DNA of 43,891 nucleotides from the sequence record OR525704.1. One strand, 5' to 3'. A program made the position numbers and the translations under genes. Origin of the DNA: Escherichia phage vB-Eco-KMB35. Shown piece after piece: positions 1 to 27,207 of this stretch. Every line of letters begins with the position of its first letter. The first letter of the stretch is position 1. Under the pieces are notes generated by a model that was given only the letters and a program-made list of their open reading frames with translations, was not told where the DNA came from and did not search any database.

Positions 1-1
1 C

Positions 2-1228: not shown

Positions 1229-1240
1229 GAGGATTATTCA

Positions 1241-2722: not shown

Positions 2723-2732
2723 GTTCACCTAT

Positions 2733-2755
2733 AGCCCCGAAAGGGGCTTTCTTAT
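2733..2755 (+). terminator. Hairpin agcccc-gaaa-ggggct followed by ttctt after portal gene
   Basis: Perfect 6-bp GC stem with tetraloop and T-rich tail. Confidence 0.5.
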
Positions 2756-2758
2756 AGT

Positions 2759-3835
2759 ATGCTATTAACTTTAGCGCCACAGGGTTTATCTATGAGCTTA
2801 CTTACATCCCTAATCAGCCATCAGATATGGCTGCAACGCACCGCATCCGGTGAAGTGAAAGACCTCACGCCGTTCATTCAGGAGATAAGGGATGAAATCA
2901 AACGGCAGGTGCTGTTATTCGGTGACGACGGTCGCAGCACTGCGCGACTGAATAAACTGTTACGCGACCTGGAAGAAGCACTAACCGGTATTACGGGTGA
3001 CTGGCAAACAAAGCTAACAGACGACCTTAAGGAACTGGCGGCGTACGAGGCTGAGTGGAACGTAAAGACACTGACCGCCAACGTAGACGCGGAATTTGTT
3101 ACGCCTACCGCTGAGCAGGTATGGGCCGCTGCCGAGTTTCAACCATTATCATTGAGCGACAAGCCCGTTGATTTCACTAAGCTGATGGACGGCTGGGGTG
3201 AAACGGAAGTAGCACGTCTTGTAACTGGAGTTAAGATGGGCTTTGTGCAAGGTCAAACCACACGGCAGATTGTTAAGAATGTTGTTGGCGCTGGTGGACT
3301 AGCCGACATCTCAGAACGTAACGCGACTACGGTAATCCGCACCGCGCTGTCCCACGTATCCAACGAGGCCCGTAACGAGACGTACCGCCAGAACGACGAC
3401 ATCATCGAGAAATATGAGTGGGTGTCAACTTTGGACAGCCGTACCAGCACGATTTGCAGGGCCAGAGACGGAATGACGTGGGAAATCGGTAAAGGTCCGA
3501 TGCCACCAGCCCATCCTAATTGCCGAAGTACCACTGCACCGGTAATCAGTTCAGAGTTCGACTTCCTTGATAAAGGCGCAAAACGTGCGGCTAAGGGTGC
3601 GGACGGCGGTACTCAGGTAAGCGCAGACACCACCTATTACGAGTTCCTGAAACAACAACCAGCATGGTTTCAGGACCAGGCGCTCGGTCCTGTTCGCGGT
3701 AAGATTTTCCGTAACAGCGGTATATCGCCGGAAGAGTTTCGCGTAATATCTGTAGATGGTTTCGGGAATCCGCTCACGCTTAAGCAGATGGCGGAACTCG
3801 ATAAACGTGTTGCTGATTATCTGAAAGGGGAATAA
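2759..3835 (+). CDS. Head morphogenesis protein (MuF / SPP1 gp7-like minor head protein)
   Basis: 358-aa ORF after portal; position and size typical of MuF-like proteins. Confidence 0.6.
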   Translation: MLLTLAPQGLSMSLLTSLISHQIWLQRTASGEVKDLTPFIQEIRDEIKRQVLLFGDDGRSTARLNKLLRDLEEALTGITGDWQTKLTDDLKELAAYEAEWNVKTLTANVDAEFVTPTAEQVWAAAEFQPLSLSDKPVDFTKLMDGWGETEVARLVTGVKMGFVQGQTTRQIVKNVVGAGGLADISERNATTVIRTALSHVSNEARNETYRQNDDIIEKYEWVSTLDSRTSTICRARDGMTWEIGKGPMPPAHPNCRSTTAPVISSEFDFLDKGAKRAAKGADGGTQVSADTTYYEFLKQQPAWFQDQALGPVRGKIFRNSGISPEEFRVISVDGFGNPLTLKQMAELDKRVADYLKGE

Positions 3836-4296
3836 TGATGGGCTTTTTCAAAGTAACTGACGTACCGTCTCGTCGCGTAGTCCAGTACGCCCGCGTGTCT
3901 GGCTCTGGCGAGAACGTGGTATTTATTGAGGACGAAAGTGTACTCGGTACACCGGTAGATGATATGCCGTTTGCAGATAAAACCGGTATTGCGTTGCCCG
4001 CCGCCGGTATGCTTTATGAAATTCCGTATCTGGCGGACGCTGGCGACGTGTATTTCTCTGCGCAACCGCAGGACGCTGAACTGGCGGGCGGCAGCGCAAC
4101 CATCACTGTCGAGGTTAAGGCAGGCAAAGCGCCGTATTCTCTGACCTGGTACAAAGACGGTAAGGAAGTGGTGAATGCGCCTGAGGAGGCTCTGTCTCTG
4201 ACGGTTAATGCGGTCGGCGAATACTTCGTTAAAGTTACTGATGCCGATGGAGTAGAGGCGGTAAGCAAAGCGGCGAAGGTTACTAAGCCAGAATGA
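3835..4296 (+). CDS. Ig-like domain protein (possible head decoration or minor structural protein)
   Basis: 153 aa; motif TWYKDGKEV typical of bacterial Ig-like domains; start overlaps previous stop (TAATGATG). Confidence 0.5.
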   Translation: MMGFFKVTDVPSRRVVQYARVSGSGENVVFIEDESVLGTPVDDMPFADKTGIALPAAGMLYEIPYLADAGDVYFSAQPQDAELAGGSATITVEVKAGKAPYSLTWYKDGKEVVNAPEEALSLTVNAVGEYFVKVTDADGVEAVSKAAKVTKPE

Positions 4297-4297
4297 T

Positions 4298-4326
4298 AAA
4301 AGGCCCCATTATGGGGCCTTAGTTTT
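4298..4326. terminator. Bidirectional hairpin ggcccc-attat-ggggcc between convergent genes
   Basis: GC stem flanked by A-run upstream and ttagtttt downstream. Confidence 0.6.
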
Positions 4327-4529
4327 CAACGGAATCTTGTGTTTAAATCCTGCTCATGGACAACCCTCAGAACAGTGTCATAATCCCCGTATCTTCCAGG
4401 TTCAAATATATCTAATGCCTTGTAAGCAGACATTGCGTCAGGGAAAACCTGCAGAACCTTTTTAACCCGGCACAAGTCACCGTCGAACTCTTCATCGAAC
4501 TCTTGAACTACTTCGCAAATTGCATACAT
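4326..4529 (-). CDS. Hypothetical small acidic protein (67 aa), reverse-oriented moron-like gene
   Basis: ATG at 4529 preceded by GGAGGTG RBS and the 32-bp promoter element; ends at bidirectional terminator. Confidence 0.6.
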   Translation of the reverse strand: MYAICEVVQEFDEEFDGDLCRVKKVLQVFPDAMSAYKALDIFEPGRYGDYDTVLRVVHEQDLNTRFR

Positions 4530-4553
4530 TTTTCACCTCCTGTTTAAGTTAAC

Positions 4554-4585
4554 TGAATAGTACCCTATTATATTGGGGTGTGCAA
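4554..4585 (-). promoter_or_regulatory. Promoter element family A (TTGCAC-N17-TACTAT), copy 1
   Basis: Minus-strand sense ttgcacaccccaatataatagggtactattca; 32 nt identical to 13678..13709; directly upstream of gene 4326..4529. Confidence 0.6.
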
Positions 4586-4651
4586 ACTATTTATTTACGT
4601 ATTCCAGTTATTCCTCCGAATTGTAAATGTTGGAATAAACTATTCGAATAG

Positions 4652-4680
4652 TTGACTTTTCACTAAAAATATGATAAGCT
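4652..4680 (+). promoter_or_regulatory. Putative sigma70-like promoter TTGACT-N17-TAAGCT
   Basis: Hexamers at 4652-4657 and 4675-4680 with a 17-nt AT-rich spacer. Confidence 0.3.
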
Positions 4681-4858
4681 CCACCTGAGCTTGTGAAGTA
4701 TGAACAAGCGACCGCGGCGCGGGCAGGTAACGGAGCGGGACGTAAGTCCTGAGTGTAGTTACGCTGACGCGTTCGGAAGGGCCATACTCTATTGCTTGTG
4801 TAAAAAGTAACTGGTTTACTGAGATTACGCCGTTTCTATGTTTAAATGATAAGGACTA

Positions 4859-4888
4859 GCGCCCCGCTTTATGGCGGGGCTTTACTTA
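4859..4888 (+). terminator. Intrinsic terminator gccccgc-tttatg-gcggggc then tttacttat
   Basis: 7-bp GC stem and T-rich tail just upstream of the Rz start. Confidence 0.55.
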
Positions 4889-4904
4889 TCGAGAAAGGGG
4901 AAAC

Positions 4905-5291
4905 ATGAATCTTAAAGCAACTGTCGTAGCAGGAGCATGTTTCATCATCCTGGTTTACGCACACGGCATCTACCAGTATCGCAGCGGATGGAACGAAGGC
5001 CGGGCTAATCTCGTTTCGCAGCAACAGCAGAAAGCACAGGCTGAGTTAGCGAAGAAAACACAACGGCAGCAGCAGGATGAATCGAAGGCCGCCGCCGCTG
5101 ACAACGAAGGCAAGACGAAATCAGAGGTGATTACCCGTGAAGTCGTTAAGTACATTAAAACGCCTGGTCGCAGCGTGTGCACTTTTGACCCTGAGCGCGT
5201 GCAGCTCAAGTCCCGCGCCGTCGCCAACGCCAATTCCATCCCCGGATACGACGATGATGCAGCCGCCGTGCAAACTGGCGCAGCCAAGTAG
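4905..5291 (+). CDS. Rz-like inner-membrane spanin (i-spanin)
   Basis: 128 aa; N-terminal TM helix (VVAGACFIILVYAHGIY), Q/A/K-rich coiled coil, periplasmic Cys; overlapping +1-frame lipoprotein gene. Confidence 0.7.
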   Translation: MNLKATVVAGACFIILVYAHGIYQYRSGWNEGRANLVSQQQQKAQAELAKKTQRQQQDESKAAAADNEGKTKSEVITREVVKYIKTPGRSVCTFDPERVQLKSRAVANANSIPGYDDDAAAVQTGAAK

Positions 5292-5400
5292 CGACGCTGA
5301 TGAGGATTTGGCCGTCGACGTTCAGAATGCTGAATGCGTACGGCAACTGAGACTGAAAGTGTTCATGTTGCAGGATTACGTGAGGAATATTCTGGAATAG
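5137..5400 (+). CDS. Rz1-like outer-membrane lipoprotein spanin (o-spanin)
   Basis: 87 aa; signal peptide with lipobox LSAC, proline-rich mature part (SPAPSPTPIPSP); starts inside Rz in another frame and extends past it. Confidence 0.65.
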   Translation: MKSLSTLKRLVAACALLTLSACSSSPAPSPTPIPSPDTTMMQPPCKLAQPSSDADEDLAVDVQNAECVRQLRLKVFMLQDYVRNILE

Positions 5401-5482
5401 TTGCCTTGCATGTTGGAATAATTTATTCTTGACATGTAAATCCGGGTGGCCCGGATTCCAACGTCCAGGGGACATACTGACT

Positions 5483-6184
5483 ATGAATCGTTTTTTACGT
5501 TATCCGTTCCAGGAAGAAGCTGGAGCAGAAGATAAAGCTGGTGGCGGTGACGCTCCTAAAATGTTCACCGCTGAAGAAGTTCAGGCGCTGATTGAGAAAG
5601 AAGTTGCCGGGCTTAAGGCTAATCAGGAAGCATTGTTGGCGGAGAAGAAAGAAGCCGCTCGCAAAGCAAAAGAGGCCGAAGAAGAACGGCAGCGCGCGCA
5701 CCAGGAGGCGTTAAAAGCCGCTGGTAAGATGGATGAGTTCGAAAAGACGATTCGTAGCCAGTACGACCCTGTGTTAGCCGAGAAAGACGGTCGCATCTCC
5801 AGAATGGCAGAGCGTATCCTCGGCAGCGAACGTAAAGCGGTGCTAGGCTCTTTCGCGGGTGACTTTATTACCCCAGAAGCAGTGGACATTCTTGCGCCGT
5901 TCGTTAAGACTGAGTTCGAAGGCGATGATGTGGTTACTAAGTTTGTTGGTGCAGACGGTAACGTAATCACGACTGACCCGGAACAGTTCCGCAAATACCT
6001 GCGCGAACACAAGGCGTTTTCGCATTTGATCAAAGCAAATGCAGCTTCCGGCGGCGGGGCTTCCGGTAGCAAAGGCGGCGGGGCCGCACCAGCGTTTAAA
6101 GACATGAGTGAAGCAGAGCGTTTAGCCCTGTATAAATCGAACCCTGCCGAATTTGAACGGCAACTTAAAGCCCTGAGGAAATAA
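5483..6184 (+). CDS. Scaffolding protein
   Basis: 233 aa from ATG 5483 (track ORF uses upstream TTG); Ala/Glu/Lys-rich helical protein immediately upstream of major capsid gene. Confidence 0.6.
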   Translation: MNRFLRYPFQEEAGAEDKAGGGDAPKMFTAEEVQALIEKEVAGLKANQEALLAEKKEAARKAKEAEEERQRAHQEALKAAGKMDEFEKTIRSQYDPVLAEKDGRISRMAERILGSERKAVLGSFAGDFITPEAVDILAPFVKTEFEGDDVVTKFVGADGNVITTDPEQFRKYLREHKAFSHLIKANAASGGGASGSKGGGAAPAFKDMSEAERLALYKSNPAEFERQLKALRK

Positions 6185-6186
6185 TA

Positions 6187-7236
6187 ATGGCAATTACCAC
6201 TATCGGCGATATCGTAACTGGCAACATCCCGGTCCTGGCGTCTTATATGACCGAGGACCCGGTAGAAAAAACCGCGTTCTTCCAGTCTGGTATTCTGACC
6301 CCGACCCCGTACGCTGCCGAGATTGCCCGCGGCCCGTCCAACGTCGCTAATATTCCTTTCTGGAAAGCGATTGATACCTCTATCGAGCCGAACTACTCGA
6401 ACGACGTATACCAGGACATCGCCACCCCGCGTAACGTGCAGACCGGCGAGATGATGGCGCGCGTTGCGTACCTGAACGAAGGTTTCGGTCAGGCGGATTT
6501 GACCGTTGAACTGACCAGCCAGAACCCGCTGCAATCCGTAGCGTCACGTCTGGATAACTTCTGGCAGCGTCAGGCACAACGCCGTCTGATTGCTACCGCG
6601 CTCGGGCTGTACAATGGCAACGTAGCCGCTACCGACGCATACCACGAGCAGAATGACATGGTAATCGACGTGTCTGCTACTCTGGGCTTCGATGCGGGCG
6701 CGTTCATCGACGCCACCCAGACTATGGGCGATGCTCTGATGGGCAACGGCGGTGAAGTGCTGGGGGCTATCGCGATGCATAGCTTCGTTTATGCGCAGGC
6801 ACGTAAGCAGCAGCTTATCGACTTCATCCGTGACGCGGACAACAACACCATGTTCGCCACCTACCAGGGCTACCGCGTGATTGTTGACGACAGCATGACC
6901 GTAGTCGGCACTGGCCCGACCCGTAAGTTCATCTCCATCATCTTCGGCAACGGCGCTATCGGTTACGGTGAAGGTTCACCGTCCAACCCGCTGGAATACG
7001 AGCGCGAAGCGTCCCGCGGCAACGGCGGCGGCGTTGAAACCCTGTGGACCCGTAAGACCTGGTTGCTACATCCGTTTGGTTACAGCTTCACCAGTGCAGT
7101 AATCACTGGCAACGGCACCGAGACTACCCCGCGCTCTGCTTCCTGGCAGGACCTGGCGAACGCCTCCAACTGGAACCGTGTGGTTGACCGCAAGCACGTA
7201 CCGATTGCCTTCCTGGTAACTGGTGTCGGTGCTTAA
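6187..7236 (+). CDS. Major capsid protein
   Basis: 349 aa, follows scaffold, strong terminator downstream, high-expression codon pattern. Confidence 0.75.
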   Translation: MAITTIGDIVTGNIPVLASYMTEDPVEKTAFFQSGILTPTPYAAEIARGPSNVANIPFWKAIDTSIEPNYSNDVYQDIATPRNVQTGEMMARVAYLNEGFGQADLTVELTSQNPLQSVASRLDNFWQRQAQRRLIATALGLYNGNVAATDAYHEQNDMVIDVSATLGFDAGAFIDATQTMGDALMGNGGEVLGAIAMHSFVYAQARKQQLIDFIRDADNNTMFATYQGYRVIVDDSMTVVGTGPTRKFISIIFGNGAIGYGEGSPSNPLEYEREASRGNGGGVETLWTRKTWLLHPFGYSFTSAVITGNGTETTPRSASWQDLANASNWNRVVDRKHVPIAFLVTGVGA

Positions 7237-7252
7237 GGTTAAGCTATAATCG

Positions 7253-7280
7253 AGAGGGACTTCGGTCCCTCTTTTCATTT
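7253..7280 (+). terminator. Hairpin agagggac-ttcg-gtccctc followed by ttttcattt after capsid gene
   Basis: Perfect GC-rich stem, tetraloop, T-run. Confidence 0.65.
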
Positions 7281-7295
7281 ACTAAGAGGTAAATT

Positions 7296-7595
7296 ATGGC
7301 TAAGACCGGAAAAGGCTTGCCGCGCAGCCTTCAGAATGTCGACTTCGGTGACTTTGATATCCCAGTCACGCCTGCTACTACCAGCGTAGTTGGTGGGGTT
7401 AAAAAGTCAGCTACTGTAGCCGCCCCCGCGGCCATTACCGCTGCCGCCGGGTCGCAGTCCGCTGCGGACCCGACTAAGACCGAGTTCGATGCCCTTGTAG
7501 CCGAGTACAACAAACTTCGAACTGATGTAACCGCGCTGCGCACTACCGTAGCAAATCTGTTGACTGCGCTTAAAAATGCAGGAACTGTAAGCTAA
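7296..7595 (+). CDS. Hypothetical Ala-rich structural protein
   Basis: 99 aa, RBS AAGAGG upstream; between capsid gene and Ig-like protein. Confidence 0.5.
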   Translation: MAKTGKGLPRSLQNVDFGDFDIPVTPATTSVVGGVKKSATVAAPAAITAAAGSQSAADPTKTEFDALVAEYNKLRTDVTALRTTVANLLTALKNAGTVS

Positions 7596-7607
7596 AGGAG
7601 CTTAAAA

Positions 7608-7958
7608 ATGGTTGATGTAATCAAACGTCGTATTACTGGTGTTTCTGATGATTCTCCTGCCGATGGTCAGGTTGAAATCGATATGGCGAATATCTCGCCC
7701 GCATCTTTTTCTACCGCACTTGCCGCTACCACTACCAAGTCTACGGGGCAGACGATGACTCTTACCGTAGCCGTAACTGGCGGTCTGGCCCCGTACACAT
7801 ACCAGTGGTACAAAGATAACAACGCTATCCCAGGCGCTACCGCCGCCACCTACGAGAAAACTTCGCTCGCTACTACCGATTCCGGTACGTATAAAGTGGT
7901 TGTCCACGATGTATATGGTAATATTATCTCCAGCAGCACCGTAGCAACTGTATCTTAA
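7608..7958 (+). CDS. Ig-like domain protein (possible capsid decoration)
   Basis: 116 aa; motif YTYQWYKDNNAIPGATAATYEKTS resembles bacterial Ig-like domains. Confidence 0.5.
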   Translation: MVDVIKRRITGVSDDSPADGQVEIDMANISPASFSTALAATTTKSTGQTMTLTVAVTGGLAPYTYQWYKDNNAIPGATAATYEKTSLATTDSGTYKVVVHDVYGNIISSSTVATVS

Positions 7959-7994
7959 TACCGCGGCCCTTCGGGGCCGTAATAAGGAAAGGTC

Positions 7995-8174
7995 ATGGCA
8001 GATAATTATGTAATCCGCGAAAAGTACACCCACGTTGATGTTGTTGACGGTCAGGTTATGCCCGTTCGCGGTGTTGTAGAAGCGGATGAACTGGTAGCGG
8101 TTCAACCGGACAACGAAGAAGCGCACAACAACGGCGGTGGCACTAAGCGTCGCCGCCGTAAGTCAGAGGAATAA
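7995..8174 (+). CDS. Hypothetical small protein with basic C-terminus
   Basis: 59-aa ORF (below track cutoff), RBS AAGGAAAGG, ends GGTKRRRRKSEE. Confidence 0.4.
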   Translation: MADNYVIREKYTHVDVVDGQVMPVRGVVEADELVAVQPDNEEAHNNGGGTKRRRRKSEE

Positions 8175-8177
8175 TTT

Positions 8178-8690
8178 ATGCCGCTAATCGTGGAAACTGG
8201 GGCAATCGTCCCGAATGCCGACAGTTACATTAGTCTGGCTGACGCCCGCGCGTTAGCGGCTAATTATGGCCTTGAGCTACCGGAAGACGATACCGCCGCG
8301 GAGGTGGCCTTGCGTAACGGCGCCACTTATGTCGGGCTTGCGGAACCGCAGATGTGCGGTCGCCGGGTATCCGCCGAACAGTCTCTGGCGTACCCACGTA
8401 CGGGAACAACACTGAACGGCTTCACTGTAGCGGATAATGATATTCCGTCGCAGTTAATCCGGGCGCAGGTAATCGCCGCTGTTACATATGGCGCAGGAAC
8501 TGATGTTCGGGCTAACTCTGATGGGCGTTCCGTGCAGACTGAGCGCGTAGAAGGCGCGGTGACCGTGACATACTTCAACAACGGCAACAGCGGAGCTACA
8601 ACTGCGATTACCGCCGCGGACGACGCTTTACGCCCGTTACTGTGCAGCGGTCTTAACAATGGCTTCTCATTTAACGTGTACCGGGGTTAA
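8178..8690 (+). CDS. Head-tail connector / adaptor protein (putative)
   Basis: 170 aa; position between head and tail genes. Confidence 0.45.
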   Translation: MPLIVETGAIVPNADSYISLADARALAANYGLELPEDDTAAEVALRNGATYVGLAEPQMCGRRVSAEQSLAYPRTGTTLNGFTVADNDIPSQLIRAQVIAAVTYGAGTDVRANSDGRSVQTERVEGAVTVTYFNNGNSGATTAITAADDALRPLLCSGLNNGFSFNVYRG

Positions 8691-8692
8691 AA

Positions 8693-9307
8693 ATGGCGAA
8701 AACTAAGGCAGAGATGTTTACCCTTATCGGTGCAAATCTCCCCGATAACACTACCGGACTTATTACCCCCGCTGCATTGCGTGAGGTAATGACGCAGATG
8801 GCGGACTCACCTATTTACGCCACTCCAGGCGTTAAAGAGGTTGAAGTTCTCCGTGCCGCGTCGACAGTAGCACAAGCGCCTACCGCGGTAGATACGGCAT
8901 TGCAGGTATCGTTCGGCTCTGCGAAGGGCAGCGCATCTGATCCGGTAATGATTAATGCTGCGGGGCTGGTTACGTTCAACACCGCAGGTAACTATGCCGT
9001 TCGCATCAAGTTACAGGCGGGCCGCACTGGCGCTAGCGGAACCTCTATCTTGCTATCGCGCATTCTGGTTAATGGCGCACAATACGGCTCTCCCGCAGCA
9101 ACTAAGCTGGTAAGTGCTGATATTACAATCCCGATTGAATCCCGCGTCGTTATTAACCCAACAGCAGGCCAGACATTCGCAGTTCAGATTATGCGAGATA
9201 GCGCCGGGACTAACTTCGGCGGCGTATATCCGCAAGCGGCTACCGTAACCGCATGGGGTACTGCACCATCCGCACTACTGGTTATTTCGAGACTGGAGGC
9301 TGCGTAA
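8693..9307 (+). CDS. Structural protein of unknown function
   Basis: 204 aa, tightly packed in structural operon. Confidence 0.45.
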   Translation: MAKTKAEMFTLIGANLPDNTTGLITPAALREVMTQMADSPIYATPGVKEVEVLRAASTVAQAPTAVDTALQVSFGSAKGSASDPVMINAAGLVTFNTAGNYAVRIKLQAGRTGASGTSILLSRILVNGAQYGSPAATKLVSADITIPIESRVVINPTAGQTFAVQIMRDSAGTNFGGVYPQAATVTAWGTAPSALLVISRLEAA

Positions 9308-9438
9308 TGCGTAAAATAATTAATATGTGGATTAACTCTGATTTTTTGTGGAAGTACGAATTTTTGGTATCAGTGTTTGCGATGGTGTCAACAACAGCTC
9401 TAATTATATTTTTAGCGGTTTGCGGGGAGTCAACATGA
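9307..9438 (+). CDS. Small hydrophobic peptide (43 aa, one predicted TM helix)
   Basis: ATG overlaps upstream stop (TAATG); sequence FLVSVFAMVSTTALIIFLAVC; lies in a markedly AT-rich island. Confidence 0.35.
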   Translation: MRKIINMWINSDFLWKYEFLVSVFAMVSTTALIIFLAVCGEST

Positions 9439-9794
9439 GCACCGCGTTCAGTAAACGTATGCAAGGCGTGGGTACACGCCTGTTAACCAAATTCGGTAGC
9501 ACGGTATCTCTGATTCGCGCTGGCTCGAAAGTGTGGGATGAAGTTCTCGGTGAGTACGTCTGGTCTGCGGATGAAGTGTTGCCGTTGAAGGCCGTTCCGG
9601 TTCCTGTTAATGCGGGTCTGGTGAACGGTACGACGATTCAGGCTGGTGACATGATTGTTAAAGCCGATTACAGCGTCGTTCCTAAGATGGAAGACAAAGT
9701 GCAATTCGGCGGCGAGCAATGGTCCGTCGTAGCCATTGAGAAGAAGGTGGTTAACGATGATGTTGTGGCCTACTTTATTCAGGTGAGAAAATGA
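9435..9794 (+). CDS. Head-tail joining protein (putative)
   Basis: 119 aa from ATG 9435 with GGGGAG RBS; gene order analogous to lambda FII. Confidence 0.45.
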   Translation: MSTAFSKRMQGVGTRLLTKFGSTVSLIRAGSKVWDEVLGEYVWSADEVLPLKAVPVPVNAGLVNGTTIQAGDMIVKADYSVVPKMEDKVQFGGEQWSVVAIEKKVVNDDVVAYFIQVRK

Positions 9795-10291
9795 GTTTCG
9801 CGCTGGACGTCTCTAAGTTCGTGGAAAAGGCGAAGAAGAACCCTGAGAAGGTGATGCGTCAGGTGTCTATCAAGCTGTTTTCCGCTATTATAAAGGCGAG
9901 TCCGGTAGATACTGGTCGGTTTCGCATGAACTGGATGGCATCTGGCGGTACTCCTGCTTCCGGTACGAGTCGCGGTACCGACCCTAGCGGGGCTAACGCA
10001 ATAAGCGCTATGGTTTCTACGGTGTCAGGTTTACCTGACTGGAGCGAGTTTACCCTGACAAATAACCTGCCGTATGCGGAAGTTATAGAGTTCGGGGGCT
10101 ACGCTACTGGCTTCCACGGCCCTAAGCGCCCTTCTAACTTAGGCTCTAAATTTGTTGGCCCATTGAGGCCGAAAGCGCCCAGCAGAACAACCACAGACGG
10201 ATATTCCCTTCAGGCTCCGCAAGGTGTTGTCCGGGTTAACGTTCAGCGATTCAATAAACTGCTCGAAGAAGAAGCGAGGAAGTATAAATAA
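9791..10291 (+). CDS. Tail completion protein (putative)
   Basis: 166 aa; overlapping start/stop with neighbours; gene order. Confidence 0.45.
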   Translation: MSFALDVSKFVEKAKKNPEKVMRQVSIKLFSAIIKASPVDTGRFRMNWMASGGTPASGTSRGTDPSGANAISAMVSTVSGLPDWSEFTLTNNLPYAEVIEFGGYATGFHGPKRPSNLGSKFVGPLRPKAPSRTTTDGYSLQAPQGVVRVNVQRFNKLLEEEARKYK

Positions 10292-10704
10292 TGGGCTACT
10301 TTGAGGACTTAACAAAAGCGTTCGATGTTCCGCTGGTAGCCTTCGGAACCGCCAACGGCATCAAGGTTGCGCTTGAAAACATCGACGCGCCGACGTCAAC
10401 CGATACGCCGTATCTGGCGAGTTACATGCTACTGGCAGATACTGAGCAGGCGGATTTGTTCTTCACTGAGCAACGCTCTGGTATTTATCAGGTAGACATT
10501 AACTACGCATCGGTGAAAGGTAGCGCGCCAATCAATAAAATGGCAGACTTACTTAACACGGCGTTTAAAGCGGGTAAGTCATTTTCGCGTAACGACATCT
10601 GCGCCGAGGTTCAATCGGTTAGCCTGGGGCCGCTGATTGTAGAAAACGGATGGGCCAAACGGCCATTGTCAATTAACTTTATAGCATTCACCAAGAGGCT
10701 GTGA
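10291..10704 (+). CDS. Tail terminator protein (putative)
   Basis: 137 aa, immediately upstream of major tail protein gene. Confidence 0.45.
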   Translation: MGYFEDLTKAFDVPLVAFGTANGIKVALENIDAPTSTDTPYLASYMLLADTEQADLFFTEQRSGIYQVDINYASVKGSAPINKMADLLNTAFKAGKSFSRNDICAEVQSVSLGPLIVENGWAKRPLSINFIAFTKRL

Positions 10705-10706
10705 AT

Positions 10707-11873
10707 ATGGCTACAACTCCTTTTAAGGGCGCGAATACCGCGCAATTCTATGTGGCGGAAGTGACCCCGGGTGTAACACCGACTAACCCGGTCTGGTCAC
10801 CATTACGTAACACGGGCGGTGTTCCTGCCATTACCCGCGACACGCTGACCTCCAACGAACTGGACGGCAGCCGTGAAACTACATCCATCCGCACCGGTAA
10901 CAAACAGGTTAGCGGTGAATACGCAATTGAGCTTAGCTCTAAAAGCCAGGACGACTGGTTAGCCGGGGCTTTAGGCTCTACGTGGCAGGCTGGCGCATCT
11001 CTGTCAGGGTTATCGATTACCGTCGCACCGGCTGGCAAGACGTTCACACGTGCCACCGGCAGCTTTATCACTGACGGAGTTGTGGTAGGCGACCTGATTG
11101 CGTTTACCGACTTAACAGGCGATAACGCAAAACCATTTATCGTTACTGCAGTAACAGCTACGGTCGTTACTGGTGCTGGTATCCAACACACCCTGACCAC
11201 CGAGACAAAAACTAGTAAGGCTAAAACTGGCGACACGCTGGAAACCGGTAACACGTGTAAGACGTTCTCTATCCTTACCTGGTACAAAGGCCAGTGCGGC
11301 GGCACTGACGCGTACACGTTAACCAAAGGCGTGGAAGTTTCTGGTTTCACTATTGAGCAGTCAGTTAACGCTATGGTAACCGGCAGCTTCCCATTCATCG
11401 GTCGCAGTCAGGAGATTCTCACTACGCCGCCGACCGGTTCCAACTTCTCATCTATTACTTTTGGTGATGAGCCATTCTCTTCGGTTGACGTTTCCGTGTT
11501 CGATGGCTCTACGCCGTTGCGTTGTGATAGCCTTACCATCACCAACGACAACAGCGCGTCCGCACAGTTCGAACTCGGCAACTCTAACGTTGCGTTTGTG
11601 GAACGTAGCCGCGCAGCTAACACCTTCTCCATCTCCGGTAAGCTGTATGACATGGCTATGATTCAGAAGTTTATCAACGAACAGCAGGTAGAGATTAACT
11701 CTATTCTGGCGGGGGTAAACGGGGCTATGTCTTTCAGTTTGAAACGTGCGGAGCTTACGGCAGTTACCCCAGAGATTGGCGGACCTGAGTCAATCACTCA
11801 GTCCATTGAAGGCCAGGCTACTGGCAACCAGTACCAGTCGTCTATTGTTATTCAGCGTATCACCTACGCATAA
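10707..11873 (+). CDS. Major tail protein
   Basis: 389 aa from ATG 10707 (RBS AAGAGG 8 nt upstream); position before chaperone/tape-measure genes; terminator downstream. Confidence 0.6.
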   Translation: MATTPFKGANTAQFYVAEVTPGVTPTNPVWSPLRNTGGVPAITRDTLTSNELDGSRETTSIRTGNKQVSGEYAIELSSKSQDDWLAGALGSTWQAGASLSGLSITVAPAGKTFTRATGSFITDGVVVGDLIAFTDLTGDNAKPFIVTAVTATVVTGAGIQHTLTTETKTSKAKTGDTLETGNTCKTFSILTWYKGQCGGTDAYTLTKGVEVSGFTIEQSVNAMVTGSFPFIGRSQEILTTPPTGSNFSSITFGDEPFSSVDVSVFDGSTPLRCDSLTITNDNSASAQFELGNSNVAFVERSRAANTFSISGKLYDMAMIQKFINEQQVEINSILAGVNGAMSFSLKRAELTAVTPEIGGPESITQSIEGQATGNQYQSSIVIQRITYA

Positions 11874-11875
11874 AA

Positions 11876-11904
11876 CTAAGGCCCCGAAAGGGGCCTTTTT
11901 TATT
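11876..11904. terminator. Bidirectional terminator ggcccc-gaaa-ggggcc followed by ttttttatt
   Basis: Perfect stem-loop between convergent major tail gene and minus-strand cassette. Confidence 0.7.
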
Positions 11905-12133
11905 ACTCATCAATGTTACTCCTGTACTCCCGTAACTTTTCCAGACTTTCAATTGCTTCCGCTAAGTCGGTTCCGGTGTCCTTGTGTCCACGTAAACCCA
12001 TGCACAATAGCTTCTTCAATGCGTGCTGTAACGCCGGGTCGCGGATGTCGAAAGCGCGGAGCACATCATAAACGTCTACTGTCATAGTGCTGCCGTGAGT
12101 GTTTGTCATTGTTCGGTTGTATTTTGAAGTCAT
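11903..12133 (-). CDS. Hypothetical protein (76 aa), last gene of reverse cassette
   Basis: ORF overlapping stop of upstream gene (12130), ends at terminator. Confidence 0.5.
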   Translation of the reverse strand: MTSKYNRTMTNTHGSTMTVDVYDVLRAFDIRDPALQHALKKLLCMGLRGHKDTGTDLAEAIESLEKLREYRSNIDE

Positions 12134-13260
12134 CCCAGCATCTCCGGTGAAATAGTTAAACGTGCGACCTCGCCATATTCGGCGCTATAAGTAATTACAT
12201 TTGCACTACGGCCTGACATCCACCCGCCGCGGGAGGCATAGGCGTCTTTAGCCGCTAAGGTGCGGTGTTGCTCAACAATCATGTTACGGCTTTCTACAAT
12301 CTTCTGGTGGTGCAGGTGGCCTACGTGGGCGTAGCTATAGACACTCTCACCGAACGCTTTGCGGAATTTGGCAATCATAACCGGTTCGATAGCATCGAAT
12401 CGCGCCTTATGCCCGTGGTGAAAGAACAACGTCGTTTTTCCGTGTTGCACCATCTTGTAAACATCCGGCGACGTATCGACAATCACTCGGCTGTCGTTCG
12501 AATATAAAACTGTGAACATTTCAGCCAGCCATACAGAGCCTACAGGGTCATGGTTCCCCTGTACGATAAGCAAGCGAACATTTTTATGTTTAACCAGTGC
12601 CATATCTACAACACGGCGTACCATACGAATCATGTAGCGGACGAGTTTCTGGTAGCGAGTGTCTGCGTCCAACACGTGACGCGACTCAGGTGTAACGGCA
12701 TCCAGACTATCGAAGTGCGCGAAATCACCCAGCAGGTTAATAACTCCTGTTCCTGCATCCGGTGCTTTCTGAAACGCCGCGTCGAACCAACGAGAGAACA
12801 GGTCTTCCGCAATCTTTATATCCCAGTCGTCGCCGCTCTCGTCGGCCCAGGCAAGCATACCGAGATGGAAATCAGATACCGTGTAAAGATTGAGTAGCTT
12901 GTCGTCGCGTTTGGCTCGAGTCGCTTTAGCCGGCGCAACTGGCGTAATCTCTGACTTCATGCCTTCAATCACGGCTTTCATCAACTCGACCTGACGTTCA
13001 GCGTCGGTGTCTGTCTTAACCCATTGCAACTTAGTATTGCCGAACTCGTCTACCAGAGACGACGTCCCTTTAATCTTGTAGCCGTCTGGGACAAGGTGGC
13101 TAACGTCACGCCCGTGGCCTACACCTTTCTTAGCCAGCTTCGCTTTACGGATACGAATAACTCGGTCTGAGATGCCGTATTTACGGGCGATGTCTACATT
13201 CTTCATCCCGGCGTTCAATTCTTCCTGTAACTGTTCGTCGGTTATTTTCTTCTGGGCCAT
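12130..13260 (-). CDS. HTH-domain / calcineurin-like metallophosphoesterase fusion protein
   Basis: 376 aa; N-terminal HTH (NVDIARKYGISDRVIRIRKAK); phosphoesterase motifs SDFHLG, LGDFAHFD, GNHD, HHGH, GHLHH in canonical order. Confidence 0.6.
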   Translation of the reverse strand: MAQKKITDEQLQEELNAGMKNVDIARKYGISDRVIRIRKAKLAKKGVGHGRDVSHLVPDGYKIKGTSSLVDEFGNTKLQWVKTDTDAERQVELMKAVIEGMKSEITPVAPAKATRAKRDDKLLNLYTVSDFHLGMLAWADESGDDWDIKIAEDLFSRWFDAAFQKAPDAGTGVINLLGDFAHFDSLDAVTPESRHVLDADTRYQKLVRYMIRMVRRVVDMALVKHKNVRLLIVQGNHDPVGSVWLAEMFTVLYSNDSRVIVDTSPDVYKMVQHGKTTLFFHHGHKARFDAIEPVMIAKFRKAFGESVYSYAHVGHLHHQKIVESRNMIVEQHRTLAAKDAYASRGGWMSGRSANVITYSAEYGEVARLTISPEMLG

Positions 13261-13325
13261 GCTTACTTCCTCGTGTTTAGGATTTGTCCTATTTAACCAC
13301 AGTGGATTCCTTTAAATAAAGGCAA

Positions 13326-13652
13326 CTATTTACTTTCTGCGCCTATCGCCCACCCTGTCATTACCATTTGCAGACGGGTGGCTGTCAGTAGGCTATAGAA
13401 AGCATCTCCGTTTTTCTCTACCGAACGTATCACTGTGTAGGTTACGGCCTGCGGGGGTAGGCCCGATTTACCAACCTCCACGGCGGCCTCACACTCGCGA
13501 ACTGTAGAGTCCTTGAACGCCTTTACAATAGTAGGGTCGGCTTTATCAAGCACACCAGAAGTCATAAGAACAGATTCACTAAATACCTGTTCGCACGGGG
13601 CTCCAAAAGTAGCAAAAGACATAAAACCCAGAGCTAGTACTAATTTACGCAT
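13326..13652 (-). CDS. Secreted/periplasmic protein (108 aa) with N-terminal signal peptide
   Basis: MRKLVLALGFMSFATFGA signal-like N-terminus; promoter element directly upstream. Confidence 0.55.
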   Translation of the reverse strand: MRKLVLALGFMSFATFGAPCEQVFSESVLMTSGVLDKADPTIVKAFKDSTVRECEAAVEVGKSGLPPQAVTYTVIRSVEKNGDAFYSLLTATRLQMVMTGWAIGAESK

Positions 13653-13677
13653 AATTATTTCCTCAGTAAGTTACATG

Positions 13678-13709
13678 TGAATAGTACCCTATTATATTGG
13701 GGTGTGCAA
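13678..13709 (-). promoter_or_regulatory. Promoter element family A, copy 2 (identical to 4554..4585)
   Basis: 32-nt exact repeat; TTGCAC-N17-TACTAT in minus-strand sense, upstream of 13652 start. Confidence 0.6.
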
Positions 13710-13816
13710 GTAGTGTGCTAGAATAAGTTTGCGCCTAGTGTCGCACACGAAAAGCGGGTGGTTCCCGCCTGGCGCATTAACCATAACCAGTAACCTCTTA
13801 ACCAAAGGACTAAAGA

Positions 13817-14233
13817 ATGAAACTTTCTGATTTCTATTTTGCCGACCGCCACGCCGCCGGTACTAAAATGCCTATCCTTCTGCCCAGTGGTAAAGATTCC
13901 GGTGAATGGTTGCAGGTCATCGGCCCCGATTGTGACGCTGGTGTTCGTGCGGGCCGTGCCTACACCACGGCAATTCGACGCCTTACGGAAGAACTTGCGC
14001 CATTAGATAAAGAGTGCGAGGCGCTGAATAACTGGGCGCGCTATAATGATGAGAAGGGCTGGCGGGTGATGGACCTGAACAAGCAGCTTGCCGTGGAAAT
14101 CGTCACCGGTTGGTCATTCGACGAACCATTCAGCAAAGAGGCGCTTGCTAACCTGTTCGACCAGTACAGTGGGTTGGCAGAGGCCGTAGTTAAGCATCAC
14201 ACCGATAGCCGTGAGAAACTCTCGGAAAAGTAA
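13817..14233 (+). CDS. Tail assembly chaperone (G-like)
   Basis: 138 aa immediately upstream of tape measure gene; overlapping -1 frame ORF downstream. Confidence 0.6.
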   Translation: MKLSDFYFADRHAAGTKMPILLPSGKDSGEWLQVIGPDCDAGVRAGRAYTTAIRRLTEELAPLDKECEALNNWARYNDEKGWRVMDLNKQLAVEIVTGWSFDEPFSKEALANLFDQYSGLAEAVVKHHTDSREKLSEK

Positions 14234-14595
14234 AAGCGCTGTATGAATTTGCGCAATGGTGCTTTGTCGACCGCCACAAACGTAAGCAATTCGACGACAT
14301 CGCGGCGGGCCACCAGGCGGCTTTGATTGCAATGGGCGTGATTAAAGAACCGCAGATGAAAGAAGCGACGGGGCCGGAATGCCCCGTTTCTCTTATCGAC
14401 GTGTTCGAGAAATACCGTGCCATTAAATTCCTACAGCGCGAAACAGATGATACTATCGTTATAATCCCGCGCGATGCGCTCAAATGGCAAGATTTGGTAG
14501 CGTTTCGTGATGTCGCCGGTTACGGCATAAGTTTGTTCGAAGCCGAGGTTATCATGGGCTTAGACGGAATATTTGAGGGCAGAGAAGATGGCTGA
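14215..14595 (+). CDS. Tail assembly chaperone frameshift extension (GT-like), reached by -1 frameshift near GGAAAAG 14224..14230
   Basis: Frame-1 ORF open from 14215 to 14595, overlaps chaperone 3' end and ends at tape-measure start; slippery A-rich run. Confidence 0.45.
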   Translation, partial: ETLGKVKALYEFAQWCFVDRHKRKQFDDIAAGHQAALIAMGVIKEPQMKEATGPECPVSLIDVFEKYRAIKFLQRETDDTIVIIPRDALKWQDLVAFRDVAGYGISLFEAEVIMGLDGIFEGREDG

Positions 14596-16900
14596 TACGG
14601 CTTCCCTAATTGCCAGAGTAAAAACAGAAGGCGCTGATGTAGCCGCTAAACAGCTTGACGCTATGGCGGCATCCGCAGACCGTGCGGACACATCCGTAAA
14701 CAAACTAACGCCGGATGTTAATAAAGTAAACTCCGCTACGTCTAAAGCGGCTTCTGACGGTTTCGCTAAATTCCGTAACGCCGCCGGGCAGGTAGGCTTC
14801 CAGGTGCAGGACATGGTCGTCCAGTTGCAGTCCGGTACGTCAGCATTTGTGGCAATAGGCCAGCAAGGTTCGCAACTTGCGGGTGCTTTCGGCCCTGGTG
14901 GTGCTGTGCTTGGGGCCGTAATCGCACTAGCGTCGGCTGTTGGTGGAGTACTGTATAAATCACTAACCGAAGCAGAAGGCAGTTCAAAAGACCTCGAAGC
15001 CGCGCAGAAACAGTTAAAAGATACTTTCCAGCAAACGGCATCTGGCTCTCTCGAGCTGACAGACGGCCTTATCCAGCTTACCCAAATCAGCAGAGAAGCA
15101 GCGGAGACTCAGCTTGCTCTGGCTAAGGCTAACGCGGACCTTATCGCGCAGCAAACCGCTAAAGCTGTTCGTGAAGATGCCGAATCATGGGAAACGTGGA
15201 AAGCCTCCACGGCATCGGCGATTAGCCAGTATGATGCATTAGTCTCTAAGGGCGCAGATGTAGGCGACACATTAGAAAAACTCGGCGGCACTTACGAGGG
15301 CAACATCGTAGGCGTCAACATGCTGGCGCAGAATATCGCGGAGCTTAGCAGTAAGTTCGGAGTTAACCGTGACCAGGCGCTGGAGATGATAGCGGCGCAG
15401 AGTGCGTTTAACAAAGAGCCAACCGCCGAGAATGCCCGTCGCATCGCCGATGTGTTTACCGACTGGCTCGGTAACACAAAACAGTTGAACCCGGAACTTA
15501 TCCGCCTGACGGACAACGCCAACAAGAACGCCACGGCACTGGAGAACGCGGAGAAGTCAGCAAACGCGGCGGCAGAGGCCCAAAAGAATCTTGGTCGCAA
15601 CGTCAACTCAACCACGCAGAGATTCCAGGAACAGAACGAAGCTATCGTCAAAAACCAGCAAATCGCCATCTTAAGCGACCGTGAGCGTATCCGGGCGCAA
15701 GCTGAACTTGATAAACAGGCGTTCGCTAAACGTGAAGCCGTCACCAAAGAACAGATAGCCGCGTATAATGCGGCCCGCGACGCGGAAGCGCAGCAAGACA
15801 TCGCCCGCATTGACAAGACCGAGAAAGAGAAGGCCGACCGCGAGGCTAAATCGAACGAGGAACGTCTGGCGGCACAAGCCAAACGCGAAGAAACAGCGGC
15901 ACAACGTCAGAAAAAAGCGGCGGAAGATTTCCTGGCTACTGTCGACCGCACAACCGGAGACGAAATTTCACGTATCACAGCGGCAGAAGAACAGAAACTG
16001 GCGAAACTTGAAGAGTTCAACCGCGCCGGAACGATAAGCCAGCAGCAGTACGAAAACGCCAAAACTCAAATTATGCTCACCGCCGAGCAGGCCAGACAGG
16101 AAGAACTGGATAAGAAAAGAAAAGAGCAGCAGGAAAAGCAGCAGAAAGGCGACGACTTCATGGCCCAGATTATGGGTCAGAACGCCGCTGAGCTTGAGCT
16201 TCTCGACATCCAGGAACAGCAGAAACTGTCGGTAGCAGATAAGTACCGCGAGCAGGGTTTGATTAGTGAGAAGCAGTATCAGGCTGCGCTTAATGCCATC
16301 AACGAGCAGTACGCCACGAAGCGTGCCGACGCAACGGCAACGGCCTTCGGTAACATGGCCTCAAACATCGGTTCGGCTTTGGGCGAGGCTTCTGGCGCGT
16401 ACAAGGCATTCGCTATCGTGCAGGCCACTATAGCCACGTACACCGCGGCTATTGAGGCGTATAAGTCAACAGCGGCTATCCCTGTAGTTGGCCCGTTCCT
16501 GGCTCCTGTAGCTGCCGCTGCTGCCGTTGGGGCGGGTATGGCGCAGATTTCCGCTATCAGGTCCGCACGTGAACAGGGCGGACAGTTATCCGCGGGGCAG
16601 GCTTCAACCATCGCCGAACGCGGTAAACCAGAAGTTATCATGCCCGCTGGTGCGTCACGTGTACGCACCGCACAGCAGATGAAAGAAATTATGGGGCAAA
16701 ACGGGTCTTCTTCCGGACCGTCTAATGTTACTATCGTAAACAACACGAGTTCTCAAATCGGCAACGTATCCACTGAGCAAGATGATGAAGGCCGTTTGCG
16801 TATCATCATCGAGGAGCAAGTGGCTGCCTCTTTGCAGAACAGTAACAGTAAGATTAGCAAGGCCCGCAAGGCCACAAGAAATGCGCCGGGGTTTAAATAA
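14588..16900 (+). CDS. Tail tape measure protein
   Basis: About 770 aa, long Ala/Gln/Glu/Lys-rich helical protein after chaperone pair. Confidence 0.8.
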   Translation: MADTASLIARVKTEGADVAAKQLDAMAASADRADTSVNKLTPDVNKVNSATSKAASDGFAKFRNAAGQVGFQVQDMVVQLQSGTSAFVAIGQQGSQLAGAFGPGGAVLGAVIALASAVGGVLYKSLTEAEGSSKDLEAAQKQLKDTFQQTASGSLELTDGLIQLTQISREAAETQLALAKANADLIAQQTAKAVREDAESWETWKASTASAISQYDALVSKGADVGDTLEKLGGTYEGNIVGVNMLAQNIAELSSKFGVNRDQALEMIAAQSAFNKEPTAENARRIADVFTDWLGNTKQLNPELIRLTDNANKNATALENAEKSANAAAEAQKNLGRNVNSTTQRFQEQNEAIVKNQQIAILSDRERIRAQAELDKQAFAKREAVTKEQIAAYNAARDAEAQQDIARIDKTEKEKADREAKSNEERLAAQAKREETAAQRQKKAAEDFLATVDRTTGDEISRITAAEEQKLAKLEEFNRAGTISQQQYENAKTQIMLTAEQARQEELDKKRKEQQEKQQKGDDFMAQIMGQNAAELELLDIQEQQKLSVADKYREQGLISEKQYQAALNAINEQYATKRADATATAFGNMASNIGSALGEASGAYKAFAIVQATIATYTAAIEAYKSTAAIPVVGPFLAPVAAAAAVGAGMAQISAIRSAREQGGQLSAGQASTIAERGKPEVIMPAGASRVRTAQQMKEIMGQNGSSSGPSNVTIVNNTSSQIGNVSTEQDDEGRLRIIIEEQVAASLQNSNSKISKARKATRNAPGFK

Positions 16901-18300: not shown

Positions 18301-18303
18301 TTT

Positions 18304-18819
18304 ATGAGCCAGGAATCTGTAGAAGCCGCCTATCGCCGTAAGCTGGCCTCAAATCCCGACGGCGAGATGGACTACATCACGTTGCAAATCAGCCACCCGT
18401 TGTTGTCAAAGACGTACTATCTTGTTCGTGGGCTACAGGAACTTACGGCGACACTGGAAACCGGCGAAACTATCACATTCGAACCCACCCCGATGGAGGC
18501 GTCGGGGGCCGCTAACAACAGTGATATGGACCAGACGACCACGTTTACTTTACCGGATATCCTCAATCAACTTGATGATGAGATGGATAAAATCCCAATG
18601 GGCAATACGGAGTTGCCGAAGTTCGTATTTCGCCGTTACGTCAGCACCGACCTGTCTTATCCGGCGGACGGCCCTGTCGTGTACGAGTTACAGGCCATCA
18701 ACCAGGAGAAGGGCGAGTTCTCTGCGGATGTCGGTACACCTATGCTGAACCAACGAAGCACTGGTATACTGATGACACCTAAAGAGATACCGTTATTACG
18801 CGGCCTGTTGACTACATGA
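18304..18819 (+). CDS. Minor tail protein
   Basis: 171 aa, gene order in tail-tip module. Confidence 0.45.
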   Translation: MSQESVEAAYRRKLASNPDGEMDYITLQISHPLLSKTYYLVRGLQELTATLETGETITFEPTPMEASGAANNSDMDQTTTFTLPDILNQLDDEMDKIPMGNTELPKFVFRRYVSTDLSYPADGPVVYELQAINQEKGEFSADVGTPMLNQRSTGILMTPKEIPLLRGLLTT

Positions 18820-27075: not shown

Positions 27076-27207
27076 TCATTCCAGCACCCACAGATAAATT
27101 GCGATGAACATGCCCAATATGGCAACCATCATGCCGTATTGACCCTCGTGACAGTAGACACCGGCAGCAAATCCCGCCAGTACCGCGATAATCAGTTTAC
27201 TTGGCAT
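27076..27207 (-). CDS. Small membrane peptide (43 aa)
   Basis: Strong AAGGAG RBS; hydrophobic sequence LIIAVLAGFAAGVY...MMVAILGMFIAIYLWVL. Confidence 0.45.
   Translation of the reverse strand: MPSKLIIAVLAGFAAGVYCHEGQYGMMVAILGMFIAIYLWVLE

Follow-up and report, generated by a model that had tools for sequence, protein, structure and literature searches.

A small membrane-peptide gene as a putative exchangeable cassette between two virion genes of Escherichia phage vB-Eco-KMB35

The lambda S107 antiholin, T4 RI, P2 LysA/LysB and P1 LydB are non-essential late membrane proteins that tune lysis, and the Hok, Ldr, TisB and Ibs toxins and the regulators of the AcrZ/MgtS type are small membrane proteins as well. 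Another described system is that of the morons of lambdoid phages, such as HK97 gene 15, a tail-operon gene that encodes a small inner-membrane protein for superinfection exclusion (PMC3594210). The stretch of DNA analysed here, which we call the window, is the complete 43,891-bp genome of Escherichia phage vB-Eco-KMB35 (OR525704.1), a virulent siphophage of the genus Kagunavirus (Guernseyvirinae); kagunaviruses are strictly lytic, glycan-dependent small siphoviruses (PMC11990801). Our subject is an open reading frame (ORF) of 43 codons at 9307..9438 on its plus strand. Like the morons (PMC3594210), this ORF appears to be extra DNA of deviant composition that sits between conserved virion genes, encodes a small predicted inner-membrane protein and is horizontally exchanged. 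Judging from sequence comparisons, we consider it probable that the ORF is a real translated gene, carried as an accessory recombining cassette and encoding a membrane peptide; the product is best read as a late-made, non-essential inner-membrane microprotein. Small orphan ORFs of phage structural operons are usually ignored or left unannotated, and here one of them appears to be selected and translated.

An initial annotation, made from the letters of the window, had picked out three very short ORFs as hydrophobic peptide genes scattered through the genome, each with a single transmembrane (TM) segment and each translationally coupled to its neighbours, and had suggested that the one at 9307 is an insertion. 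All three ORFs are present at the positions given for them (9307..9438, 27076..27207 on the minus strand and 42643..42726). They encode unrelated peptides, and one is a core gene and two are accessory, so that the three do not form a set.

The 43-codon reading frame and its diverged homologue

The ORF opens with an ATG at 9307 and closes with a TGA at 9436-9438. Its product, MRKIINMWINSDFLWKYEFLVSVFAMVSTTALIIFLAVCGEST, is on record for this phage as WQN07629.1, and the ORF is already annotated as a 'hypothetical protein' in seven GenBank relatives; the cassette proper spans about 9308..9434/9435. Upstream lies a conserved virion-module gene for 204 amino acids (8693..9307, plus strand, phrog_3614), the TAA of which overlaps the start of the ORF in a TAATG junction (9305-9309). 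Downstream, in an ATGA junction (9435-9438), the stop of the ORF overlaps the start of the gene for head closure Hc1, or 'Neck1' (119 amino acids; 9435..9794, plus strand). The coupling claimed for this ORF is thus borne out on both sides. A Shine-Dalgarno (SD) sequence, GGAGG (9295..9299), stands 7 nucleotides (nt) before the ATG, and in relatives in which the slot is empty it serves the head-closure gene; a replacement SD, GGGGAG (9424..9429), lies in the 3' end of the cassette, 5 nt before the head-closure ATG.

The peptide is predicted to form a single TM helix, as first proposed. Its hydrophobic segment FLVSVFAMVSTTALIIFLAVCG (residues 19-40; 9361..9426) gives a best 19-residue Kyte-Doolittle window of 2.48 (residues 20-38), and AlphaFold2, run on the single sequence, models one helix over residues 2-41 (predicted local distance difference test, pLDDT, 91). 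When the cassette was shuffled with its composition kept, 3.1% of the shuffles were open in frame, and 1% of the open ones were equally hydrophobic. Two parts of the peptide recur in the discussion below: the juxtamembrane motif NSDFLWKYEF (residues 10-19; codons at 9334..9363) and, within the hydrophobic segment, the TM face T-x-ALI-x-FLAV (9391-9420).

The case for selection on this peptide is carried by one diverged homologue. An exhaustive HMMER scan of 1.84 billion representatives found P0001 (MSIWSKVKDYWENSDFLWKYEFIGGWFILCLTAALIVFLAVAENSQ, 46 amino acids, E 1.1e-5), and a word-indexed search of 5.8 billion proteins returned no relative of the 43-residue peptide beyond it. The gene for P0001, on the short Logan contigs L204 and L205, fills the same slot: it lies between the genes for a 207-residue homologue of the upstream gene product (72% amino-acid identity) and a 119-residue Hc1 (71% identity), and overlaps each neighbour in an ATGA. 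The phage of contig L204 has at most 70% nucleotide identity to Guernseyvirinae-like phages of Enterobacter, Serratia and Salmonella, and no close known relative. Between P0001 and the 43-residue peptide, 23 of 43 residues are invariant (about 50% identity), including NSDFLWKYEF and T-x-ALI-x-FLAV. The codons of these two blocks differ at ten synonymous and no non-synonymous positions, NSDFLWKYEF alone accounting for four of the synonymous differences, and over the whole peptide the proportion of synonymous differences (pS) is 0.72 and that of non-synonymous differences (pN) 0.37 (Fisher p = 0.0016). For the flanking genes of the window and L204, pN is 0.19-0.20 and pS is saturated. At the P0001 locus the sense frame alone is open. 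This comparison supports the view that the 43-codon ORF is translated and under selection at the amino-acid level; the peptide family appears to be older than Kagunavirus, with its amino acids and not its DNA conserved.

A separate observation concerns the protein collection itself, in which the 43-residue peptide shares a 90%-identity cluster of 2,244 members with the unrelated 204-residue upstream protein. This is probably a clustering artefact of overlapping genes, and it may explain why the word-indexed search came back empty despite the 43-residue sequence being in the collection.

The suggestion of an insertion had first been drawn from base composition, and the segment in question is indeed poor in guanine plus cytosine (GC). 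The 127-bp interval 9308..9434 has 35.4% GC against 50.9% for the genome; it ranks with the 1.1% of 127-bp windows that are poorest in GC (0.8% when the windows are those of 1..20000), as one among about a dozen comparable low-GC islands. By codon position its GC content is 0.30/0.35/0.40, where third positions of the flanks have 0.50-0.57, and T makes up 37% of its coding strand; GC being low at all three positions, the AT-richness would come in part from amino-acid composition and in part from codon choice. The gene for P0001, in a phage of 57% GC, likewise lies about 12-16 GC points under its flanks, chiefly at codon positions 1 and 2, so that much of this 'AT island' seems to be a signature of peptide composition. 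About half of the AT-richness is due to a peptide rich in F, I, K, N, Y, W and L, and AT-richness alone is weak evidence of insertion. The other islands of at most 35.4% GC lie at 4477-4716 (the minimum, 29.1%), 13572-13733, 23283-23449, 23701-23829, 24155-24335, 27822-28021, 30088-30215, 33405-33590, 36641-36999 and 38153-38368, and some of them coincide with intergenic or promoter regions or with a swapped part of the tailspike gene.

The slot, its alternative cassettes and their spread

The insertion is best seen from the relatives. The region matched 114 phage records. Seven of them (Bas73, Bas75, Bas76, UTEC10, CR01, M01 and AMO_3701M) contain the interval at 97-99% identity; most of the others align in two pieces, with a stretch mostly exactly 128 bp shorter than the query. 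Slot states were read in 67 IMG/VR relatives plus several GenBank records, with the end of the 204-residue gene and the start of Hc1 as landmarks. Among the 67 IMG/VR loci, about 50 have an empty slot, with a TGATGA, a TAATG or a 4-nt overlap and no product; almost all loci of the more distant relatives (flank proteins 65-83% identical) are in this state. Of the 40 GenBank records listed, 27 are empty there as well. The closest backbone over the region is that of Bas72, which differs from the window by a clean indel of 125-128 nt at the slot; its Hc1 gene, directly downstream of the indel, is 98.9% identical to that of the window. Because the same junction is a bare overlap in most relatives, the 43-codon ORF can be taken as an insertion. 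A comparison of 9308..9434 among relatives had been proposed as a check on the coding claim, the danger being a conserved non-coding spacer; the interval is missing from most relatives, and it is not such a spacer.

The slot can be filled in more than one way. A 127-nt cassette encoding the 43-residue TM peptide occupies it in the window and in the seven GenBank phages named above. A 94-nt cassette encoding a hydrophobic peptide of 32 amino acids (MNKFTCGVVFGFLTAVVLHSYGVLLTLQEVLK) is found at about 11 loci and in fEg-Eco19, where it is unannotated; a 109-nt cassette for a basic peptide of 37 amino acids is carried by Bas74 and two IMG/VR loci; and a 337-nt cassette for a 113-residue zinc-ribbon protein with a CxxC...CxxC pattern (phrog_11861) is present in RP180 and at one further locus (L039). 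The four are mutually unrelated, and each is an intact ORF. In all of them the initial ATG overlaps the upstream stop, the terminal ATGA overlaps the start of Hc1, and the 3' end is a purine-rich, SD-like run ahead of Hc1. Two copies of the 113-residue cassette, with 74% DNA identity, give a pN/pS of 0.21, and this cassette is a real gene under purifying selection.

Within Kagunavirus, the 43-codon cassette is far more uniform than its surroundings. Among 16 carrier genomes, nucleotide and third-position diversity are 0.0065 and 0.017 for the cassette, 0.114 and 0.27 for the upstream 204-residue gene, and 0.068 and 0.15 for Hc1. Between the window and other carriers, 2-3 of 127 cassette sites differ, where 10-17 would be expected from the flanks (P = 7e-6 to 3e-3), and third-position mismatches become dense again 33 nt from the cassette on its upstream side and 8 nt from it on its downstream side. 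When either flanking gene is placed in a neighbour-joining tree, the carriers fall into at least three separate groups among genomes with an empty slot or another cassette, and the Hc1 gene of the window groups with those of empty-slot phages. A variant with the substitution M26L is found on 71 contigs listed and is indexed in 99 blocks of the collection; at all 10 places inspected it lies in the same slot, linked to either allele of the gene that follows Hc1. A near-clonal cassette on scattered, diverged backbones points to recent spread by recombination, and we read it as one young, nearly clonal allele that seems to have moved between diverged backbones by recombination, the crossovers falling within tens of bases of a gene boundary. 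Such spread would fit positive selection, without proving it. As for a donor, the searches covered 5,426 E. coli genomes, PLSDB plasmids and, by back-translated motif scans, IMG/VR, JGI metagenomes and GTDB genomes; none of these sources yielded a copy or relative of the cassette.

Variation of a similar kind is seen nearby. The gene after Hc1 ('tail completion or Neck1', 166 amino acids; 9791-10291) has two alleles among relatives: one of 501 bp in the window, Bas72, Bas73, Bas75, Bas76, CR01 and M01, and one of 396 bp in K-01, UTEC10, RP180, Bas74 and fEg-Eco19. In the long allele the middle is diverged and a 35-residue insertion (GFHGPKRPSNLGSKFVGPLRPKAPS...) is present. Which allele a genome carries is unlinked to the 43-codon cassette. 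In contig L204, Hc1 and the neck gene after it, which overlap directly in the window, are separated by an extra ORF of 53 codons (1294-1455), and this junction may be a second cassette slot.

Competing explanations and possible functions

Three other explanations have to be set against that of a translated accessory gene. The ORF might be a translational relay or neutral passenger, its frame kept open only to pass ribosomes on and its peptide inert. Several points weigh in favour of this, and against a selected peptide. The gene is absent from most relatives, and its product is an orphan, with no match in PHROGs, Pfam, NCBIfam or the PDB sequences and, by tblastn against all phage records, only the seven Kagunavirus copies. 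T-rich open frames easily yield TM-like segments (PMC7005711), and at 37% T a Kyte-Doolittle value of 1.6 is passed by 23% of composition-matched open shuffles; a helix predicted by AlphaFold2 from the single sequence of a hydrophobic 43-mer is likewise weak evidence. The case for selection is built on a single diverged homologue, known from three contigs of less than 2 kb, and at a pN of 0.37 against 0.19-0.20 for its flanks the peptide changes at about twice their rate. Within Kagunavirus the first seven genomes aligned have three variable sites (two synonymous, and the conservative M26L), too few for a selection test there, and the retrieval of further copies relied on the exact protein sequence and so hides non-synonymous variants. 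Any young insertion in a highly recombining population, a neutral one included, is also expected to show little diversity across many backgrounds. Even so, a relay requires an open frame only and not a conserved sequence, whereas the homologue, at saturated synonymous divergence, keeps 23 of 43 residues with the ten-residue run and the TM face, and its conserved blocks show the ten synonymous and no non-synonymous differences already described (same Fisher p). In hydrophobicity the peptide ranks within the top 1% of matched open frames. A relay would bring no gain compared with an empty TGATGA junction, and still the cassette has lasted in two deeply diverged lineages. We therefore hold an inert passenger to be unlikely. 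A gene inherited from the common ancestor of Kagunavirus and the L204 phage and lost many times since, and so not inserted at all, seems to us a little less probable again. It would account for a homologue in the same slot, with flanks about 72% identical and synonymous divergence (dS) saturated for cassette and flanks alike. It does not sit well with a cassette that is 9-18 times less diverse than its flanks, third codon positions included, or with carriers that are polyphyletic on both flanking genes, which together imply recent introgression of one allele and not long vertical descent; gain is also more parsimonious than a precise restoration of TGATGA in dozens of lineages. At different depths both views can hold, for an old family that was recently re-introduced into Kagunavirus.

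The remaining explanation is that the insert is non-coding and regulatory (an internal promoter for tail genes, an operator of a helix-turn-helix (HTH) regulator, or a small RNA) and the ORF incidental. What speaks for it is an exact 16-nt repeat, TAAAATAATTAATATG, present at the 5' end of the cassette (9312-9327), where it provides the codons for KIINM in the non-conserved N-terminus of the peptide, and again at 33487-33502, in the AT-rich divergent early-promoter region between an ORF at 33192..33419 on the minus strand and an HTH regulator gene at 33541..33756 on the plus strand. The second copy contains the -10 element TAAAAT of a TTCACA-16-TAAAAT promoter and is kept in all four of the Kagunavirus contigs inspected from IMG/VR, each with an empty slot; two copies did not arise in any of 100 shuffles. 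Similarity between the two sites ends at 16 nt. Against a regulatory insert, the best -35 upstream of the cassette TAAAAT matches 3 of 6 positions, and no sigma-70-like promoter or intrinsic terminator was found within 8600-9900. The cassette has no Rfam match at E <= 1, and 199 of 200 shuffles are more structured than its RNA (z +1.99), as expected of a coupled coding region. The L204 homologue conserves amino acids and not nucleotides and is without the 16-mer, and the three unrelated cassettes in the same slot are exact ORFs too. Chance, a patch left by recombination or a weak internal promoter might each explain the repeat, and a purely regulatory insert strikes us as very improbable.

Other ways of reading the sequence were tried and rejected. 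For a -1 frameshift fusion to the upstream protein, the frame is open back to 9253, but 9253-9305 holds no slippery heptamer of the form X XXY YYZ, and the upstream sequence is identical in phages with an empty slot. The lipobox follows the rule [LVI][ASTVI][GAS]C after a signal peptide, with Val disallowed at -1. A lipoprotein of the receptor-masking Cor or Llp type fails on this rule, as the sole Cys stands in L-A-V-C-G (residues 36-40) with Val at -1; the mature part would be five residues long, and the homologue has Ala in place of the Cys. An antisense ORF of 60 codons (9282..9464) is open across the cassette, and all antisense frames are closed in the homologue.

On the preferred reading of a translated accessory gene, a promoter-less cassette of 128 bp sits where the stop of the C1q-like virion gene and the start of the head-closure gene otherwise overlap, adopting the resident SD for its own start and supplying a new one for the essential gene downstream; ribosomes finishing the upstream gene can then translate the peptide and, after it, Hc1. 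Coupled in this way to neck genes, the peptide would be made late, alongside the neck proteins. Its N-terminus would be cytoplasmic (R2, K3 and K16 against the C-terminal E41) and a short GEST tail periplasmic. The aromatic and acidic NSDFLWKYEF would lie at the cytoplasmic membrane interface, and the conserved helix face TxALIxFLAV might pack against a partner membrane protein.

What such a peptide might do is a matter of guesswork. Tentatively, it could modulate holin triggering and so the timing of lysis, since it would be late, membrane-embedded and dispensable, and since the spanin genes are also embedded in the structural region; the distance of 31 kb between the lysis cassette and the 43-codon gene speaks against this. 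A guess that we hold slightly less strongly is that it neutralises a membrane-acting abortive or defence response of the host triggered by late proteins. Exclusion of superinfecting phage DNA, by analogy with HK97 gp15, is more doubtful still, as late expression speaks against classical exclusion. The rest of our expectation goes to some other function or to none. More broadly, we speculate, and only as a possibility that we would not favour over its negation, that the TGATGA junction is a dedicated 'plug-in socket' for unrelated promoter-less micro-genes, each with an SD for the gene downstream, that are hot-swapped among virulent Guernseyvirinae by recombination at their boundaries, that the near-clonal allele marks an ongoing selective sweep, and that the peptide, through NSDFLWKYEF, counters a membrane-acting defence of the host or competing phages.

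Genomic surroundings and relation to known systems

The window is collinear with the BASEL phages Bas70-76, to which it is 88-98% identical, and its gene layout was obtained by mapping the annotation of Bas72 across. By this mapping the Rz/Rz1 spanin genes lie at 4905-5400, inside the structural region, the major capsid gene at 6187-7236, the head-tail adaptor gene at 8178-8690, the tail terminator gene at 10291-10704, the holin genes at 40124-40697 and the endolysin gene at 40771-41163. The 204-residue product encoded upstream of the cassette belongs to a PHROG without function and is called a 'C1q domain protein' in one source; its weak, sub-threshold Pfam matches are to BclA_C and a podophage fibre protein, and it may be a neck or head fibre-like decoration.

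Whole genes are gained or lost at gene boundaries throughout when the window is compared with Bas72. Apart from the slot, a whole-genome comparison shows that the C-terminal part of the tailspike gene is swapped (22232-23929), that two small genes (142 and 340 nt) are found only in Bas72, at the places corresponding to 30150-30160 and 32350-32355 of the window, that a 246-nt insert holding the 75-codon ORF at 33192..33419 on the minus strand is found only in the window (33181-33426), and that a 208-nt segment is replaced (38962-39169). In the stretch 33440-33530, two direct copies of CTATTCACAT[G/A]TCAA flank the early-region 16-mer, and three promoter-like sites are present where 0.6 would be expected, of which one, on the minus strand, matches at 11/12 positions; the stretch resembles an operator/promoter switch that would serve the HTH regulator beside it.

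The two other small ORFs of the initial annotation differ from the cassette in several ways. That at 27076..27207 on the minus strand (43 amino acids) does have the AAGGAG ribosome-binding site ascribed to it, 9 nt upstream, and is coupled on both sides: an 11-nt overlap (ATGCCAAGTAA) joins its start to the end of the upstream gene, and its stop shares an ATGA with the next start. Its hydrophobic residues form two stretches (5-18 and 25-42), which makes the label 'single-TM' uncertain here. The peptide matches phrog_10404 (E 4.5e-32) over 43 of 43 positions and is conserved beside the DNA polymerase gene in Kagunavirus and in Salmonella Jerseyvirus; it is a core gene of Guernseyvirinae. In the window, as in Bas72, an endonuclease VII gene (27208-27900, minus strand) lies between the DNA polymerase gene and this small ORF. 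In most relatives the annotated polymerase gene adjoins the small ORF directly, and the nuclease gene is likely a mobile insertion.

The third ORF, of 27 codons (42643..42726, plus strand), does not overlap its upstream neighbour, as it starts 4 nt after the preceding stop, and has an overlap at its end (TAATG). From its distribution it is an accessory presence/absence gene. It is missing from fKuEco01, where the neighbours are coupled directly, and hz69 has it without an annotation; at its position the annotation of Bas72 leaves a gap of 87 nt (43076-43162), and Bas72 probably carries it too. In K1G it is diverged (MSLEVVIGLVAAGYFIGVLIGFMWGRD...) and stands behind an extra gene of roughly 76 codons, and in LM02P1 a longer ORF with a related hydrophobic C-terminal tail replaces it. 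Among the three small peptides no pairwise similarity was found, with a shuffle z of about 0 for the cassette peptide against the others; the peptide of 27076..27207 against the 32-residue cassette peptide gave a shuffle z of 4.1 and no BLASTP alignment. The small annotated ORFs of Bas72 are mostly not hydrophobic.

For the study of such genes, the slot offers material that is already at hand. In the BASEL collection Bas73, Bas75 and Bas76 carry the 43-codon cassette, Bas74 carries that of the basic peptide and Bas72 is empty, so that the function of a late microprotein and the fitness effect of a cassette can be tested directly in E. coli K-12 with natural variants. In virulent phages, at least four unrelated micro-genes are exchanged through a single translationally coupled junction, and this junction is a proven permissive site for small payloads in a 44-kb phage of the therapeutic type, with virion gene expression undisturbed.

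An accessory small membrane-protein gene in a phage structural operon is, as a kind, already familiar. Of the features by which morons are known, the cassette shows extra DNA absent from collinear relatives and a deviant base composition (35.4% against about 51-54% GC, partly through amino-acid composition). It lacks the transcriptional autonomy that defines a moron (PMC3594210), a promoter and terminator of its own that allow expression from a repressed prophage; its start and stop overlap its neighbours, and the phage is virulent (PMC11990801). It differs from HK97 gene 15 in that it would depend on coupling within the late operon, in that a virulent phage allows no prophage expression, and in that no PHROG, Pfam or NCBIfam similarity to HK97 gp15-type exclusion proteins was found; at 43 amino acids, it is also one of four alternatives in a single junction. 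With the lysis-tuning proteins it would share its small size, membrane location, late synthesis and dispensability; it differs from them in its distance from the holin and endolysin genes, in having no match to a holin or antiholin family, and in its position outside the lysis cassette. Like the small membrane toxins and regulators, it has fewer than 50 amino acids and a single predicted helix that would likely bind a larger membrane protein or perturb the membrane. Unlike type I toxins, it shows no match to their Pfam or NCBIfam families at E <= 1, no antisense RNA by Rfam, no promoter of its own and no copy in E. coli or PLSDB. It resembles the de novo TM proto-genes (PMC7005711) in being a short orphan ORF, rich in T and in AT, in which nothing but a TM segment can be recognised; unlike a newborn proto-gene, it appears to have kept its amino acids across two deeply diverged lineages, and no non-coding precursor was found. 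What this locus adds is a slot shared by four alternative cassettes, a microprotein family conserved around a sharp motif, and the near-clonal spread of the cassette across backbones.

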